From NCBI GenBank assembly GCA_949289505.1, contig CASEOP010000048.1:1-39797 (forward strand): 39,797 nucleotides of DNA. Reading direction: 5' to 3'. A program made the translations under genes and the position numbers. The notes below the pieces were generated by a model that saw only the letters and a list, made by a program, of their open reading frames with translations, was not told the origin of the DNA and made no database searches. This stretch comes from an uncultured Mycoplasmatota bacterium. Its GTDB lineage: Bacteria; Bacillota_I; Bacilli_A; RF39; UBA660. The stretch's first letter is position 1. Each line of letters opens with the position of its first letter. Positions 2,059 through 37,537 of this stretch are shown here, piece by piece.

Positions 2059-2511
2059 CTAACTTAAATATTTAGGACTATTTATTTTTCCTAATAAATA
2101 GTCAGCAGAAATATTATATTTTTTACATATAGTATATAAAAAAGGAGTAGCAATTAAATTTCTCCCTTTTTCATTAAAAGCAATAGAAGAAAAAGTAGTA
2201 TTTAGCATACTGGCTAATTTAACTTGAGTAATTTTATTATCTTTCCTAAACTCTTTTAGTCTCTTACCAGCTTCTATTTTATCTACATCGTGAGTACTAT
2301 CATACTGTTTTTCATCAGTTAAATTAAGAATATAATCTATTGAAACATCATAATATTTACTTAAATAAACTAAATGTTTAATCGGAATTATTTTTTCCTT
2401 TGTTTCATAATGATTATAAGTTTTTCTATCAATTTTAAGCAGATTTGCTATATCTTTTTGCCTGAGATTCTTATCCTCCCGTAAGGCTTTTAAAGTATAA
2501 TTATAGTCCAT
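2059..2511 (-). CDS. XRE-family transcriptional regulator with two tandem helix-turn-helix domains
   Basis: There are two Cro/C1-type HTH units. One is LRQKDIANLLKIDRKTYNHYETKEKIIPIKHLVYLSKYYDVSIDYILNL. The other is ITQVKLASMLNTTFSSIAFNEKGRNLIATPFLYTICKKYNISADYLLG. Confidence 0.8.
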   Translation of the reverse strand: MDYNYTLKALREDKNLRQKDIANLLKIDRKTYNHYETKEKIIPIKHLVYLSKYYDVSIDYILNLTDEKQYDSTHDVDKIEAGKRLKEFRKDNKITQVKLASMLNTTFSSIAFNEKGRNLIATPFLYTICKKYNISADYLLGKINSPKYLS

Positions 2512-2583: not shown

Positions 2584-2612
2584 TTGACTTTCCATATACC
2601 GAAGTTTATAAT
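2584..2612 (+). promoter_or_regulatory. SigA-type promoter candidate for the 2700..3920 gene, in the region divergent from the XRE gene
   Basis: TTGACT (2584-2589), 17-nt spacer, TATAAT (2607-2612). Confidence 0.5.
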
Positions 2613-2699: not shown

Positions 2700-3920
2700 A
2701 TGAAGATAGAAACACTTAAAAGAAGTCATTTAAAAAGAAACATTATCATAGGAGTATTTGCAGTAGCGGTAATAAGTGCAGCAATATTAAATTTCACAAG
2801 AGCTAAATACCGGGTAACACAAAGTATACCACTTGTAACAGGGACAATTAATTATAAGTTAGCTGACTTAAATGTTATAGCGATGTATCAAGTAAACGAA
2901 AGTGGTGGATATGATTCGATAGATACAGTGCCTGATTCAGGCTATGTTTTAAATGAAGAAGAAAGTTACTGTGAAATTGATAGAGAAAAAGATGACAGTA
3001 TTACTATGATATATGAAAATGGTGTAGTAAATATTGGTGTTAAGGAAAAAGGCACAAAATGCTATTTGTATTTTGATGAAGGTGGATTATTATCAGGAAA
3101 TTTAGCCGAATCTATTATAGCAAACGCAGGAACAGATCAAATTTTAAATGATGACACTTCTGCACAAAATCCAAGATTTGTTGGTGCAGATCCGGATAAT
3201 TATGTATACTTTAATTGTGATGATTATAATAATCCAAGTAGTAGTACATGTGAATTATGGAGAATTATTGGAGTATTTAGTGAAGATACCCATGTTAGGA
3301 GTGGTGAAAAGTTAGTTAAATTAATACGAGATGAAAGTATTGGAAGCTACGCATGGGATTCAGGAGATGTTAATGATTGGACAACGGCAAGTTTACAAAA
3401 AAGTTTAAATGGAAGTTATTTAAGTGGAACAACCTTAGGAAGTGGAAAAGGAATAACCAGTGCAACAAATAACATGATTGAGACCGTAACATGGAAATTA
3501 GGAGAAAGTAGCACCTACAATGATGTAACAGCAAGTATGTTTTATGAAAGAGAAAGAGGAACAACAACATGGAAAGGAAAGATAGGATTAATGTATCCAA
3601 GTGATTATGGATATGCAACAAGTGGAGGAAGTACAACAAATCGCTCGTCTTGTTTAGCAAAAGAACTGTTTAATTGGGATAGTTCTAGTGATTGTAAAAA
3701 TAATGATTGGTTATATGATAGTGGTACTACTCAATGGACTTTAACTCCTCTTTCTTCTAGCACCGGCTACGTGTTTGGTGTGACCAACGACGGCATTGTC
3801 GGCAACCGCCACATCGCGCTCAACCGCAATGCCGTGCGTCCATCTATCTATCTAAAATCTAATATCGCGATTTCTAGCGGAACCGGATTAAGTTCCAATC
3901 CATATACTTTGACTGACTAA
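2700..3920 (+). CDS. Membrane-anchored or secreted surface protein with a C-terminal lectin-like (DUF6273/DUF1566-like) domain
   Basis: N-terminal TM or signal anchor (NIIIGVFAVAVISAAILNF). The C-terminus shows the pattern QWTLTP...GYVFGVTNDGIVGNRHIALNRNAVRPSIYL. From memory this resembles the W-x-(S/T)-(S/T)-P ... G ... VRP(A/S)(L/I) signature of DUF6273/DUF1566-type domains. Not verified by search. Confidence 0.6.
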   Translation: MKIETLKRSHLKRNIIIGVFAVAVISAAILNFTRAKYRVTQSIPLVTGTINYKLADLNVIAMYQVNESGGYDSIDTVPDSGYVLNEEESYCEIDREKDDSITMIYENGVVNIGVKEKGTKCYLYFDEGGLLSGNLAESIIANAGTDQILNDDTSAQNPRFVGADPDNYVYFNCDDYNNPSSSTCELWRIIGVFSEDTHVRSGEKLVKLIRDESIGSYAWDSGDVNDWTTASLQKSLNGSYLSGTTLGSGKGITSATNNMIETVTWKLGESSTYNDVTASMFYERERGTTTWKGKIGLMYPSDYGYATSGGSTTNRSSCLAKELFNWDSSSDCKNNDWLYDSGTTQWTLTPLSSSTGYVFGVTNDGIVGNRHIALNRNAVRPSIYLKSNIAISSGTGLSSNPYTLTD

Positions 3921-4091
3921 CTAACAGTTTTAAGAAAAGCTAGGAGAAATTGAAGTAATTGATATAAAAGTGCGACCCAAAGTGTACGATTTTAAGTAAA
4001 TAGTATAACAATAAGTATAATTGTATATTTGCAAGGATTTAATCTACTCTTTTATTCAAAAGTATTTAATTTATTGCACTAAAAAAGCAAA

Positions 4092-4117
4092 AAATAAGTG
4101 ATGTTCACTTATTTTTT
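4092..4117 (+). terminator. Rho-independent terminator
   Basis: Stem aaataagtga / tcacttattt with loop tgt, followed by a T-run. Confidence 0.6.
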
Positions 4118-4179
4118 ATTGTGGCTGTAAATAGTAACAAGTATTTAAATGAATTAGTTTTGATGCCCTGTATCAAAGA

Positions 4180-4208
4180 TTGCAATTATCCGTTTTTATA
4201 GATATAAT
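4180..4208 (+). promoter_or_regulatory. SigA-type promoter candidate for the GT-C / GT2 / lgt / trxB gene string
   Basis: TTGCAA (4180-4185), 17-nt spacer, TATAAT (4203-4208). Confidence 0.45.
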
Positions 4209-4234
4209 ATTATTAATAAAAGGAATGATTGCAA

Positions 4235-9132: not shown

Positions 9133-9881
9133 GTGCAATTTAAGGAGGTTGAAAAGACAAAAACAAAAAAATTTATATCAGTAGTTATAAGCATTATAAA
9201 TGAATTTAACTTAGTTCCATTATTGAATACATTAGATGTAATTTCAGAAAAAAATGGTAATGCCTCAATAATTATAGAAAATCAAGAAAATAGCGAATTA
9301 GCTTTAAATCAATTAAAAAATAATATAGATGACAAATGGCATTTTAATTGGTTTTTAGTCATATTAGACACTGATTTAAGTTCACTAATTTCTAAAATTA
9401 ACGCCAAATCACTAAGCCTATATATTAATACTGAAAAAGAAAATATTTCCTATAAAATAAATGAAGGAGTAGAAAGTTTATCACTATCCTTAACACATGA
9501 GGTGGAAACTAAAAAAATATTTATTTAGAAATACCAAACTCATTAAAAAAACTACATATTAATTGCGCCAACATTGAATCATTACAAATAGCAGATATTA
9601 AAAATGCTTACTTAGATGTTATCTCCTATAATAATTTAAATTTAGATTTTTTAATACAATCAGGTTATCTTGATTATCCTCAATTTTCTATTAACTATGC
9701 TTGGCAAAATACCATAAGAAAAGATGCTTCTACTAATTACAAGATACTAATTGAAATAAACTACCAGCCTATAGCAGAAATTAAGTTACAAAAAGATAGC
9801 AATGGTAAAACTACCGGTATAATTATAGAGCCATTAAAGGAAATTGGAGATTTAAAACTAATGCGAACAAAATCTCATTAA
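9133..9881 (+). pseudogene. Hypothetical gene split by a frameshift at an A7 homopolymer. The two frames are 9133..9528 and 9513..9881.
   Basis: ORF 9133..9528 ends at TAG 9526-9528. The -1 frame is open from 9513 to TAA 9879-9881 (about 120 codons) and has no ATG/GTG/TTG near its 5' end. The two frames overlap at the run of seven A at 9511-9517. One extra A would fuse them into a protein of about 250 aa. Confidence 0.55.
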
Positions 9882-9942
9882 TAAAAGCTATCCAAAATGT
9901 TTTTTTTATGCTATACTTATAACACATAATAGAGGTGTAGTA

Positions 9943-11001
9943 ATGAAAAAGAAGTTAAAAAAGAAAAATGTTATTATTTTATCTATAATTGCCATAATTT
10001 TAATTGTGAGTATAATATCAAGTATAATATTATTATCTAAAGATAATAAACCAAATAACTCTAAAAAAGAAAATAATGATTTGAAAGAAGAAATAAAAGA
10101 AGAAGAAAGAGTTAAAATAGTTGATTTAAATAGCACGTCAAGACCATATGCTGTAATGATTAATAATATAGGAGCAGCAAGACCTTATCACACCGGTTTA
10201 CAAGATGCTTATTTAGTTTATGAAATAGTTGTTGAAGGTGGAATTACAAGATATTTAGCACTTTTCAAAGATAAAAATAACGAAGTTGTAGGTAATATTC
10301 GTAGTGCAAGACACTACTATTTAGATTATGTTATGGAAAATGATGCATACTATGTTCATTGGGGTTGGTCACCACAAGCCCAAAGTGATATATCAACCTT
10401 AAATATAGATAATTTAAATGGACTTACATATGGTTCTCCTTATTTCTTCCGTCAAAACATAAGTGGTGTAAATATTGAGCATAAAGCATTTACCAATTTA
10501 AAAGAGTTAAGTAATTTAGTTAATAAATTAGGATACCGTACCAAAACCAATAAAGACTTACTATTAAATTATAGTGCAACTCCAATTGAAATAGAAGATG
10601 ATGCTAAAGAAGCAAATAATATTGATATAAAGTATTCTAATAGTTCTACTACAAATTATGTATATGACAGTACAAATAAAAATTATAAACAATTTGTAAA
10701 CGATAAAGAGCACACTGATTATGCTACCAAAGAACAATATGCGGTAAAAAATATAATTATTTATCAAGTAGGAAATAGTACAATTACTAATGATGATAAA
10801 GGTCGCCAAGAATTGGATAATATTGGTAATGGCAAAGGCTATTTTATAACTGAAGGCAAACAAATTCCAATAACTTGGGAGAAAAAATCTCGTTCAAGCC
10901 AAACGATATACCGCTATTTAGATGGTAAAGAAATAACTGTAAATGATGGAAACACATGGATACATATTGTACCCAAAACTGGAAACATAAGTATTTCATA
11001 A
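9943..11001 (+). CDS. DUF3048 domain protein (YerB-like), membrane-anchored
   Basis: N-terminal TM (VIILSIIAIILIVSIISSIILL) followed by RPYAVMINNIGAARPYHTGLQDAYLVYEIVVEGGITRYLALF, which is characteristic of DUF3048. Confidence 0.75.
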   Translation: MKKKLKKKNVIILSIIAIILIVSIISSIILLSKDNKPNNSKKENNDLKEEIKEEERVKIVDLNSTSRPYAVMINNIGAARPYHTGLQDAYLVYEIVVEGGITRYLALFKDKNNEVVGNIRSARHYYLDYVMENDAYYVHWGWSPQAQSDISTLNIDNLNGLTYGSPYFFRQNISGVNIEHKAFTNLKELSNLVNKLGYRTKTNKDLLLNYSATPIEIEDDAKEANNIDIKYSNSSTTNYVYDSTNKNYKQFVNDKEHTDYATKEQYAVKNIIIYQVGNSTITNDDKGRQELDNIGNGKGYFITEGKQIPITWEKKSRSSQTIYRYLDGKEITVNDGNTWIHIVPKTGNISIS

Positions 11002-35383: not shown

Positions 35384-35416
35384 AACAATTAAATACAAAA
35401 GTAGGGAGTGTTCCAA

Positions 35417-37537
35417 ATGAACGATAGTAATTTACAAGAACAATATGCTTTATTAGAAGAAGAGGAAAGAGAGAATAAAAAGAAAACCATCATAATTATT
35501 ATATTATGCTTATTAATTATATTGACAACTCTTTTAGGAATTTTCTTCTCTATTTCCGGTAATAAAAAATGCAATTTAAACTGCGATACCGATGGCGATG
35601 GTGTATGCGATTTGAATTGTGATACTAACGGTGATGGTATATGTGATGTTAATTGTGATACCGATGGTGATGGCAAACCTGATATTAATATTGATTATAA
35701 TGGTGATTTAATACCTCACTTTAATATTCAAGTAGATGGTGAAATTATAAATCAATTAAATAAGGATATTGATGGCGATGGCAAATGCGATTTGAATTGT
35801 GATATTGATGGTGATGGCTGGCCTGATATTAATATAGACTTCGATAATACTAACACTTGTGATATAAATTGTGATTCAAACGGTGATAATAAGCCTGATT
35901 ACAATATAGATACTGATGGCGATGGCAAACCAGATATTAATATAGACATTGATGGTGATAATAAACCGGATATAAACATCGACATTGATGGTGATAATAA
36001 ACCTGATATAAACATTGACACTGATGGTGATAATAAACCGGATATAAACATCGACACTGATGGTGATAATAAACCTGATATAAACATCGACACTGATGGC
36101 GATGGCAAACCTGATGTTAACATTGATTATGATGGCGATGGCAAACCTGACTATAATATAGATACTGATAGTGATGGCAAACCAGATGATAACCTAATAA
36201 ATCAAGATACAAATAACGATGGTAAATGCGATATAAATTGTGATACAAATAACGATGGTGTGCCTGATATAAACATCGACATTGATGGTGATGGCAAACC
36301 TGATATTAATATAGACACTGATGGCGATGGCAAACCAGATATTAACTTAGATATTGACAAAGATAAAGAGCCTGATATTAATATAGATACCGATGGTGAT
36401 GGCAAACCTGATGAAAACCTTATGAATCAAGATACAAATAACGATGGCAAATGTGACATAAACTGCGATACTGATGGTGATGGCTGGCCTGACATAAACA
36501 TTGATATAGATAATGATGGCAAACCAGATATTAATATAGATACTGATGGTGATGGCAAATGTGATGTCAATTGTGATACAGATAATGATGGCAAACCAGA
36601 TATCAATATTGATATAAATAAAGATGGCAAACCAGATGTCAATATAGATACTGATGACGATGGCAAACCAGATGACAATTTAATAAATCAAGATACCGAT
36701 GGTGATGGTGTTTGCAACATAAATTGTGATACAAACGGTGATGGCGTGCCTGATACCAATATAGATATTGATGGCGATGGTAAACCTGATATTAATATTG
36801 ATGAAGATAATGATGGAGCGTGTGACTACAATTGTTATGATGATTTATATTATGATGCTAATTTAAGTGGAATTAAAGTTGGTAATTATAATTTAAAACC
36901 TAATTTTAATAATAAAATCACTAATTATACTGTAAATGTAGAAAAGAATTTAAATAGTATTGTTGTTGAAGCAACTGCTTTAAATCCTAAAGCGAAAATT
37001 ACAGGAACAGGAGTAATTAATTTAACCGAAGAAAGTACACGGGTAGCAATTACTGTAACTGCTGAAAATGGAAGTACAAAGACTTACTATGTAACTATTA
37101 TAAAATCAGTTGAACCTTCAACTTCTGACGAAGGAGAAGGAAGTTACGAAATTAGCAATGATTCATTAATGGTAAGTTTTACGAAGGCCATGAACGCAAC
37201 AAATATTATTCCTGGATGGGAAGGAACACATGCTTTTACAGTTACTAACAAATCTGATCAAACTTTAGTTTACAATATTAATTTAGTAAAAGTATCAAAC
37301 ACATTTAAAAATAACGAATTTGTCTTTAATTTAGTAAAAGATGGTAAAGTTTTAATTGAAGAAACACCAGCTTTAACTAGTGACAAAACAGTATATAGCA
37401 ACCTCGTAATTGCTCCTGGCGAAACTGCTACATTCCAGATGAATTACAAATTTATTTATCACGATTATAGCCAAGATTATAATCAAGGAGTAAGATATAC
37501 AGGAACCGTTGAAATAACTTTTGATGCTATTCAATAA
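35417..37537 (+). CDS. N-terminally membrane-anchored giant surface protein with Asp-rich Ca-binding (TSP type-3-like) repeats, a cadherin-like beta-sandwich and a C-terminal TasA-like domain
   Basis: An acidic cytoplasmic head is followed by a TM helix (TIIIIILCLLIILTTLLGIFFSI). About 35 units of the D-x-N-x-D-x-D-G-D-G-K-P type follow, some with Cys (CDLNCDTNGDGICD). The cadherin-like motif is LSGIKVGNYNLKPNFNNKITNYTVNV...ITVTAENGSTKTYYVTI. The C-terminal ~150 aa align with the small TasA-like paralogs and end in DYNQGVRYTGTVEITFDAIQ (compare TasA NKYQGNSIKLQFSFEATQ). The ORF track starts at GTG 35408; ATG 35417 follows an AGGGAG RBS. Confidence 0.8.
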   Translation: MNDSNLQEQYALLEEEERENKKKTIIIIILCLLIILTTLLGIFFSISGNKKCNLNCDTDGDGVCDLNCDTNGDGICDVNCDTDGDGKPDINIDYNGDLIPHFNIQVDGEIINQLNKDIDGDGKCDLNCDIDGDGWPDINIDFDNTNTCDINCDSNGDNKPDYNIDTDGDGKPDINIDIDGDNKPDINIDIDGDNKPDINIDTDGDNKPDINIDTDGDNKPDINIDTDGDGKPDVNIDYDGDGKPDYNIDTDSDGKPDDNLINQDTNNDGKCDINCDTNNDGVPDINIDIDGDGKPDINIDTDGDGKPDINLDIDKDKEPDINIDTDGDGKPDENLMNQDTNNDGKCDINCDTDGDGWPDINIDIDNDGKPDINIDTDGDGKCDVNCDTDNDGKPDINIDINKDGKPDVNIDTDDDGKPDDNLINQDTDGDGVCNINCDTNGDGVPDTNIDIDGDGKPDINIDEDNDGACDYNCYDDLYYDANLSGIKVGNYNLKPNFNNKITNYTVNVEKNLNSIVVEATALNPKAKITGTGVINLTEESTRVAITVTAENGSTKTYYVTIIKSVEPSTSDEGEGSYEISNDSLMVSFTKAMNATNIIPGWEGTHAFTVTNKSDQTLVYNINLVKVSNTFKNNEFVFNLVKDGKVLIEETPALTSDKTVYSNLVIAPGETATFQMNYKFIYHDYSQDYNQGVRYTGTVEITFDAIQ
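35570..36844 (+). repeat. Coding repeat region made of degenerate 36-bp (12-codon) Asp-rich units, with three ~75-85-aa super-repeats
   Basis: Periodic GATGG(T/C)GATGGCAAACC(T/A)GATATTAATATAGA-type units run throughout. The super-repeat marker NQDT(N/D)(N/G)DG(K/V)C(D/N)INCDT occurs three times, at about 36195, 36425 and 36685. Confidence 0.9.
35933..36112 (+). repeat. Five near-identical 36-bp tandem repeats
   Basis: Units start at 35933, 35969, 36005, 36041 and 36077. The consensus is gatataaacatcgacactgatggtgataataaacc(g/t). The four units starting at 35969-36077 differ at about 2-7 positions (mostly 2-3). The first unit (35933) is more divergent, at about 6-11 positions. Confidence 0.9.

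Follow-up and report, generated by a model that had tools for sequence, protein, structure and literature searches.

Among the diversity-generating retroelements (DGRs) described so far, those closest to the system considered here are the DGR of Treponema denticola, with TvpA and as many as seven remote targets, and further cellular DGRs of the Lineage-4 type (Wu et al. 2018, PMC5758913; PMC4891356). The features in common are one small cassette with several dispersed chromosomal targets, a variable region (VR) that occupies the C-terminal end of a fold of the C-type-lectin type, and an AAC-rich template whose adenines change to any base, with non-A changes arising occasionally, as do differences in length opposite runs of AAC. 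Other DGRs, too, are on record as having remote or non-adjacent targets, as undergoing non-A changes and as differing in length opposite AAC runs (PMC5758913), and the largest metagenome survey states its inability to detect remote targets (PMC8144416). The mechanistic model is the DGR of Bordetella phage BPP-1, consisting of Mtd, bAvd, a template repeat (TR) and the reverse transcriptase (RT) bRT, in which bAvd and RT carry out an adenine-specific mutagenesis, and phage DGRs with DUF6273 as the target domain have been published (PMC10743442). The DNA analysed here, called the window throughout, is the 39,797-nt (39.8-kb) contig CASEOP010000048.1 from an uncultured Mycoplasmatota bacterium (assembly GCA_949289505.1). 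Positions 3747-3842, near the 3' end of its gene 2700-3920, are very probably (about 0.9) the VR of a non-adjacent DGR target gene.

What sets this segment apart to the eye is its base composition. The 84 nt from 3759 to 3842 have 61.9% G+C as compared with 27.3% for the whole window; since 84-nt sliding windows have a mean G+C of 27.3% with a standard deviation (sd) of 6.7%, the island lies ~5 sd higher and represents the maximum of all 84-nt stretches, the next peak being 51%. Eighteen of its 28 codons end in C and 22 in G or C, versus 8.4% and 17%, respectively, elsewhere in the gene; the island ends 25 codons ahead of the stop of this 406-aa open reading frame (ORF). A previous reading made from the letters alone, hereafter the sequence-only reading, had quoted the very letters found at 3759-3842 and had spoken of ~60% G+C and of 18 NNC codons out of 28, unlike any other stretch, a description which the measurements bear out. 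Its coordinates delimit the core of the VR, but the homology with the template begins 12 nt earlier and the unit is 3747-3842; the visible island begins only at 3759 because the template, like the first four VR codons (CCT CTT TCT TCT), is AT-rich over this part.

The evidence that carries the assignment is the fit of the VR (96 nt, + strand, aa 350-381) to a 96-nt TR that is identical across eight contigs (L026-L031, L035 and L039), coming from different samples and belonging to related uncultured Bacilli, not to the window genome. This TR reads CCT AAT TCT TCT AAC AGC AAC AAC GTG TTT AAT GTG AAC AAC AAC GGC TAT GTC (AAC)5 GCG AAC AAC AGC AAT GCC GTG CGT CCA and aligns with the VR without gaps. 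Differences occur at 20 of the 36 template adenines and at two of the 60 other positions (Fisher p = 5e-9), the 20 changed adenines having become G in nine cases, C in six and T in five. The TR has 44% G+C overall and 70% at its non-A positions, the VR 59%; the island thus results from the high G+C of the non-A positions together with the conversion of 15 adenines to G or C, and the VR scaffold stands out from a gene with 17% G+C at third codon positions (GC3) because it is copied from the template without evolving under the AT pressure of the host.

The composition jump, taken by itself, could be produced by a patch acquired from a GC-rich organism, by an assembly chimera or by a codon-usage island due to chance or selection, and the first two of these had been listed as alternatives in the sequence-only reading. 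An origin unrelated to DGRs would nonetheless have to cope with the continuous reading frame, with homologs from independently made assemblies that have this scaffold in the corresponding position, with the concentration of the VR/TR differences on adenines and with the hypervariability and NNC-limited residues of the family, facts by which donor patch and chimera are rejected; the hits of the scaffold pattern in GC-rich genomes, for their part, are unrelated chance matches. Having nothing but the raw jump in its favour, such an origin deserves practically no credence.

The cassettes to which these templates belong were reached by scanning species-representative genomes with the invariant scaffold GCGNNCNNCNGCNNTGCCGTGCGTCCA. 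Leaving aside the chance matches just mentioned, the scan pointed to two uncultured Bacilli metagenome-assembled genomes (MAGs), four hits being VRs in homologous genes and one a TR. The latter (L015, on the same contig as L026) is AAC-rich and starts ~10 nt past the stop of an RT ORF containing YMDD and IGNLTSQ, a protein with an RVT_1 domain in which the DGR-typical [I/L]GxxxSQ motif is present. A bAvd gene lies upstream and an 82-aa ORF downstream, the overall order of the cassette being accessory ORF, bAvd, RT, TR, 82-aa ORF; bAvd gives a Pfam hit marked as weak and a match to NCBIfam DivGenRetAVD with E = 7e-9, which is below the curated cut-off. A more distant relative (L001) has, after its homolog, a TR rich in AAC and then genes for bAvd and RT; the adjacent VR (9325-9425) is one codon longer than the TR (9868-9965) in the AAC run, and a second target on the same contig (L003) displays several non-A differences from this TR.

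Where TR and VR share a contig, their differences at A and non-A positions amount to 14/0, 14/1, 13/1, 10/2, 14/2 and 13/3. Furthermore, the loci L027 and L035 share 97.2% identity along 2.5 kb, but of the 96 positions of their VRs 20 are different, 19 of them corresponding to TR adenines; the DGR lineage is recently active in other samples. Besides the 96-nt form, the TRs found downstream of RT genes (L026-L045) comprise length alleles of 90 and 93 nt, the three differing in the number of AAC codons. The 90- and 93-nt templates fit shorter VR classes, the VR of L004 showing 12 A and one non-A differences from the 90-nt TR. A mosaic TR (GGT AAC TTG ... GGT GTG CGC CTG) was encountered in cassettes whose Avd falls in the same 90%-identity cluster.

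As to their surroundings, some cassettes have a phage-type integrase or a sortase as neighbour (L043, 3461-3686 (-); L022, 4411-5250 (-)) and others have genes of PcrA/UvrD and DNA ligase, an arrangement from which it would seem that the cassettes may move between chromosomal sites. The scaffold pattern gave 0 matches in viral contigs and the TR pattern 0 matches in JGI metagenomes.

A further indication of template-directed diversification comes from the protein family. At least 7,930 of 8,000 candidates scored are significant homologs of the target protein, and its C-terminal domain falls into 4,476 clusters at 50% identity. The homologs are strongly conserved save for one C-terminal stretch, LTPxSSxSxxVFxVxxxGYVxx..xxxAxxSxxVRPS. 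In 120 homologs all positions with an entropy of >=2.7 bits lie within aa 344-377, values elsewhere being <=2.4 bits, and the high-entropy columns coincide with the AAC/AAT codons of the TR, the sole exception being aa 344 just upstream of the VR. The TR codons containing a single A, AGC and TAT, are less variable (0.9 and 2.4 bits, respectively), the AGC columns having S with rare R or G and the TAT column Y, F, S or C in 85% of the sequences. Amino acids that NNC or NNT cannot encode (K, E, Q, M and W) account for 0.8% of the residues at the high-entropy columns compared with 14.8% in the rest of the protein. The VR lengths across the family, finally, form classes of 28, 29 and 30 residues, matching the length alleles of the TR.

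The two non-A differences of the window VR (3763 G>C and 3795 T>A) correspond to 3.3% of the non-A positions. The second concerns the Tyr codon, TAT in the TR and AAT or ATT in the VR, where a non-A change is common to the window and to L027 (position 133, i.e., VR position 49); ~15% of the family members have at this position residues that a TAT template could not yield. Either an AAT template allele that has escaped detection or a non-canonical mutagenesis at T is the cause of this change. Dating the last rewriting of the VR by its non-A mismatches was considered and rejected: they give no date because the flanking domain diverges by 4-15% among family members, no lower than the 3.3% of the VR scaffold.

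The nature of the encoded protein is in keeping with this assignment. The target gene (2700-3920, + strand), of which no other copy exists within the window, is an intact ORF for 406 aa comprising an N-terminal hydrophobic helix (aa 8-36, as taken from a low-confidence model), a middle part rich in beta structure and, at the C-terminus, a lectin-like domain containing the VR. A full-length model built with 34 close homologs had a predicted local distance difference test (pLDDT) score of 48 and was discarded as unusable; the domain alone (aa 150-406, window 3147-3917 (+)), modelled by AlphaFold2 with 35 diverse homologs from a representative search, reached a pLDDT of 94. In Foldseek the best PDB match of this domain model is 9qa6, the immunoglobulin A (IgA) peptidase of Thomasclavelia ramosa (E = 5e-9, template-modelling (TM) score 0.56 on the query, 17% sequence identity), whose N-terminal domain carries the annotation DUF6273 and has been described as C-type-lectin-like, of a novel type similar to Legionella Lcl (PMC12402451, PMC12237041). 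The output names no aligned residues for 9qa6, and it is domain size and annotation that point to the N-terminal domain as the part matched. The C-terminal domain of Lcl is the next hit, a weak one, and among viral structures it is DUF6273 phage proteins that match best.

By sequence, on the other hand, Pfam DUF6273 scores 12.7 bits with the window protein versus a cut-off of 23.5 (E = 0.12), so that the gathering threshold is not reached; the family is weakly matched in 20 of 34 relatives, with a best E of 6e-4, and sequence profiles compared with the PDB gave no meaningful match. Membership in DUF6273, as judged from the model, is a matter of structure and not of a curated sequence threshold, and it is the model that substantiates the DUF6273/C-type-lectin-like domain proposed by the sequence-only reading. 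The target protein would be displayed on the cell surface. Some domain-search matches, such as P0316 (2,446 aa), contain the lectin-like domain in as many as six to eight copies per protein. Taken together, the A-specific fit to a related-genome TR located beside bAvd and RT genes, the hypervariability confined to AAY codons with an NNC repertoire and the lectin-like fold uphold the suggestion, already made from the letters, that the island belongs to a DGR variable region.

The DNA of the C-terminal domain (window 3370-3880 compared with L004-L018) is 85-96% identical between targets of different MAGs, whereas for the adjacent regulator and the gene's 5' part the identity is ~70%, and the best partner changes from block to block; this mosaic pattern suggests recombination among family members. 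From such a pattern it could be argued that the VR, or the entire C-terminal domain, was gained by homologous recombination with a family member diversified elsewhere. Yet the exact 84-nt island has 0 matches in species-representative genomes and every VR retrieved differs from that of the window; recombination, moreover, accounts for the provenance of the segment and not for its A-specific pattern, for which a DGR origin would still be required. An imported VR is, on this evidence, improbable.

If 3747-3842 is indeed the VR of a DGR target, signals directing the homing of complementary DNA (cDNA) should be looked for at its 3' side. Two candidates are present. The first is the GC-rich block GCCGTGCGTCCA (3831-3842 (+), 12 nt), which is the same in VR and TR, immediately after which the two diverge; neither the eight contigs carrying the 96-nt TR nor the 90- and 93-nt variants depart from it, and 6/6 VRs compared have it unchanged. 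By analogy with the Bordetella model, which served to assign the role of this block (PMC5758913), it is presumed to be the start of a homing signal resembling the initiation of mutagenic homing (IMH) element. The second is the 33-nt flank TCTATCTATCTAAAATCTAATATCGCGATTTCT (3843-3875 (+)), a candidate target-recognition sequence, which is conserved as DNA: the alignment block 3841-3870 is 96% identical to five target genes of other assemblies, synonymous sites included, as compared with 54% just beyond. Both the block and the flank of the window match those of the cassette-adjacent target and, being intact, make the locus look competent to receive cDNA.

Several findings weigh against the assignment and must be set beside those that favour it. 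No inverted repeat, hairpin or cruciform was found downstream of the VR (fold z-score 0.13); inspection of the cassette-adjacent target did not disclose a hairpin either, and a GC-rich inverted repeat is present in only 34% of DGRs (PMC5758913). A TR variant accounting for 3763 G>C and 3795 T>A, i.e., with AAC at codon 6 and AAT at the Tyr codon, was not found, those that did turn up being of 90 nt, of 93 nt and the mosaic with GGT AAC TTG ... CGC CTG; and non-A mismatches, two in number (3.3%), are no rarer than the ordinary divergence of the flanking domain (4-15%) would entail. A further point concerns the cassette: neither RT nor Avd, 82-aa ORF or TR was found in the 39.8-kb window, and 0 of the ~30 related RT/Avd contigs retrieved come from the window's own assembly, ERZ16268284.

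The absence from the window is well documented. The repeat search detected no copy of the island, and a TR-type scan allowing at each position the VR base or A, on both strands and for the whole VR and its halves, yielded nothing above background; there is no YxDD motif, Pfam found no RT in 20 ORFs, and tblastn of the window with RT, Avd and 82-aa ORF of related cassettes gave no match. The failure of the sequence-only reading to see an RT or a template is therefore borne out by motif, Pfam, tblastn and TR scans alike. The window ORFs assigned by Pfam have housekeeping or envelope functions only (LTA-synthase-like, glycosyltransferases, Lgt, thioredoxin reductase, PheS/T, FtsEX, PcsB-like, TilS, FtsH, BipA, Tex and FemAB). 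The 308-nt spacer 3921-4228 was considered as the remnant of a deleted cassette and rejected, having no similarity to any cassette locus. With a window devoid of RT, Avd and TR, the target is non-adjacent.

How much this absence says about the genome is another matter, since in this lineage the RT/Avd/TR cassettes are nearly always found on contigs of 1-6 kb, which binning drops, and the lack of a cassette on a contig or in a MAG is consequently weak evidence. Targets lacking a cassette within the 2-10 kb of flank read are known also from L003, L004 and L005, and the L003 target lies ~45-55 kb from the L001 cassette on one contig. L006 is not a remote target of this kind: at the 3' end of its contig, in the orientation of the gene, the sequence stops within the accessory ORF preceding Avd, at a long poly-G run, and it is the cassette-adjacent target of L026, split by assembly. 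Cassette contigs often have a higher coverage than target contigs (13x vs 7-8x in BRZ_V).

These circumstances bear directly on the possibility, which the sequence-only reading had also named, that the VR is a relic, written by a DGR in the past and now a frozen coding sequence, the cassette having been lost or never inherited with this copy. The 39.8-kb contig contains no cassette and none was recovered from the same assembly; some drift since the last homing event would agree with the two non-A mismatches to the best TR. A parallel is offered by MAG BRZ_V bin2 (L008, L016 and L018), which has three targets and no hit of the TR pattern; the sole cassette found in that sample (L045, ERZ24773559, 1.9 kb), which is missing from the hits of this MAG although the sample yielded the MAG, has a TR unfit for all three VRs. 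Against a frozen sequence speak an ORF, GC-rich scaffold codons, 3' block and 33-nt flank that are all intact despite a GC3 of 17%; the missing cassette says little in view of the 1-6-kb contigs lost in binning, and the T>A change in the Tyr codon is found also in the VR of L027, which shares its contig with its own TR. A relic is thus rather unlikely, though it keeps a weight that the other alternatives do not have, and a live cassette elsewhere in the genome of the window is fairly probable. The collections hold two records of the window protein, identical in sequence and constituting a single sequence of the locus.

With 3747-3842 taken as the VR of a non-adjacent target, the events can be envisaged as follows. 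A cassette located elsewhere in the genome would encode the accessory ORF, bAvd, RT, a 96-nt TR and the 82-aa ORF; the TR would be transcribed and the RT-Avd complex would make from it a cDNA, misincorporating opposite template adenines. This cDNA would then replace the VR, presumably guided by the shared GC-rich 3' block and by the conserved flank. Seventeen AAC/AAT template codons would be turned into NNC/NNT, randomising the face with which a membrane-anchored surface protein of the C-type-lectin-like (DUF6273) type binds its ligand, and the scaffold codons GTG TTT, GGC, GTC, GCG and GCC GTG CGT CCA would be copied faithfully. The TR predicted for the genome of the window, 96 nt long, is CCTAATTCTTCTAAC-N6-AAC GTGTTTAAT GTG (AAC)3 GGC-NAT-GTC (AAC)5 GCG AACAAC AGC AAT GCCGTGCGTCCA. 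The mechanism is the standard one of DGRs and no new mechanism is revealed.

The target gene is accompanied by a divergently oriented gene (2059-2511, - strand) for a 150-aa XRE-type regulator with two helix-turn-helix (HTH) domains, in which Pfam recognizes HTH_19/HTH_3 twice and NCBIfam an RstR-like protein. The same pair of HTH (-) and target (+) genes is found in L001, L003, L004 and L005, and a DNA match (window 2084-2266) suggests it in L006 too. Within the 190-nt spacer between the two genes a consensus scan finds strong promoter-like sites in both directions, each with 11/12 matches and each a pattern match only: TTGACT-17-TATAAT at 2584-2612 (+) for the target gene and a mirror site at 2527-2500 (-) for the regulator. 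The pairing with an HTH protein and the bidirectional promoter-like sites suggest that the diversified receptors may be regulated copy by copy. Far from this locus, the ORF 35408-37537 (+) contains, at 35541-36834, tandem repeats of 36 nt (12 aa) that have diverged from one another and form a long array rich in D-x-D-N-D-G-K-P-D; its 709-aa product, which has a cadherin-like beta-sandwich domain, is probably a calcium-binding surface protein.

A tentative picture, for which the odds are somewhat unfavourable, is that of a dispersed receptor repertoire in which many membrane-anchored DUF6273 copies, each with its own double-HTH repressor, are served in trans by one cassette, the TR alleles of 90, 93 and 96 nt setting the length classes of the VRs. 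In such a repertoire the dispersed copies might be switched on individually, and a sharp G+C/NNC island in an AT-rich gene may suffice to find remote or orphan targets that lack RT and TR, a class which, by their own account, escapes large surveys (PMC8144416). What the locus implies for the search for DGRs is that, where the genome is AT-rich, an island of composition is enough by itself to flag a DGR target, and that a large unannotated protein family joins the DGR target class. Most copies in these gut Bacilli lie away from a cassette, and surveys requiring RT and VR on one contig are blind to this organisation; the 96-nt template and the flank provide a concrete probe with which the cassette can be sought in the source sample.

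Compared with the known systems, what is new is the family, the dispersed organisation with a regulator per copy and the identification by the composition island alone. The N-terminal domain of the T. ramosa IgA peptidase (9qa6; PMC12237041, PMC12402451) is, like the window protein's C-terminal domain, a C-type-lectin-like domain of the DUF6273 family and originates in a gut bacterium belonging to the Bacilli, but it is not known to be diversified by a DGR and is part of a seven-domain metallopeptidase. The phage targets with DUF6273, i.e., the tentaclins and the Faecalibacterium prophage targets (PMC10743442, PMC11792537), belong to the same DGR-diversified domain family; they are, however, receptor-binding proteins encoded inside cassettes, some with the VR near the N-terminus, whereas the window protein is cellular, membrane-anchored and encoded on a contig without a cassette. 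With BPP-1 the window system has in common a GC-rich block, here the presumed start of a 3' homing signal, and the display of variable residues on a lectin-like fold; the BPP-1 DGR differs in being phage-borne, in having an adjacent target without detectable sequence similarity to that of the window and in the GC-rich inverted repeat that follows its IMH and is absent from the window. Finally, unlike Treponema and the other Lineage-4-type DGRs, the system described here, whose own cassette is unseen in the window, belongs to uncultured gut Bacilli of ~27% G+C, has the gene order accessory ORF, bAvd, RT, TR, 82-aa ORF, and acts on membrane-anchored DUF6273 targets, each of which is paired with a divergent double-HTH regulator.

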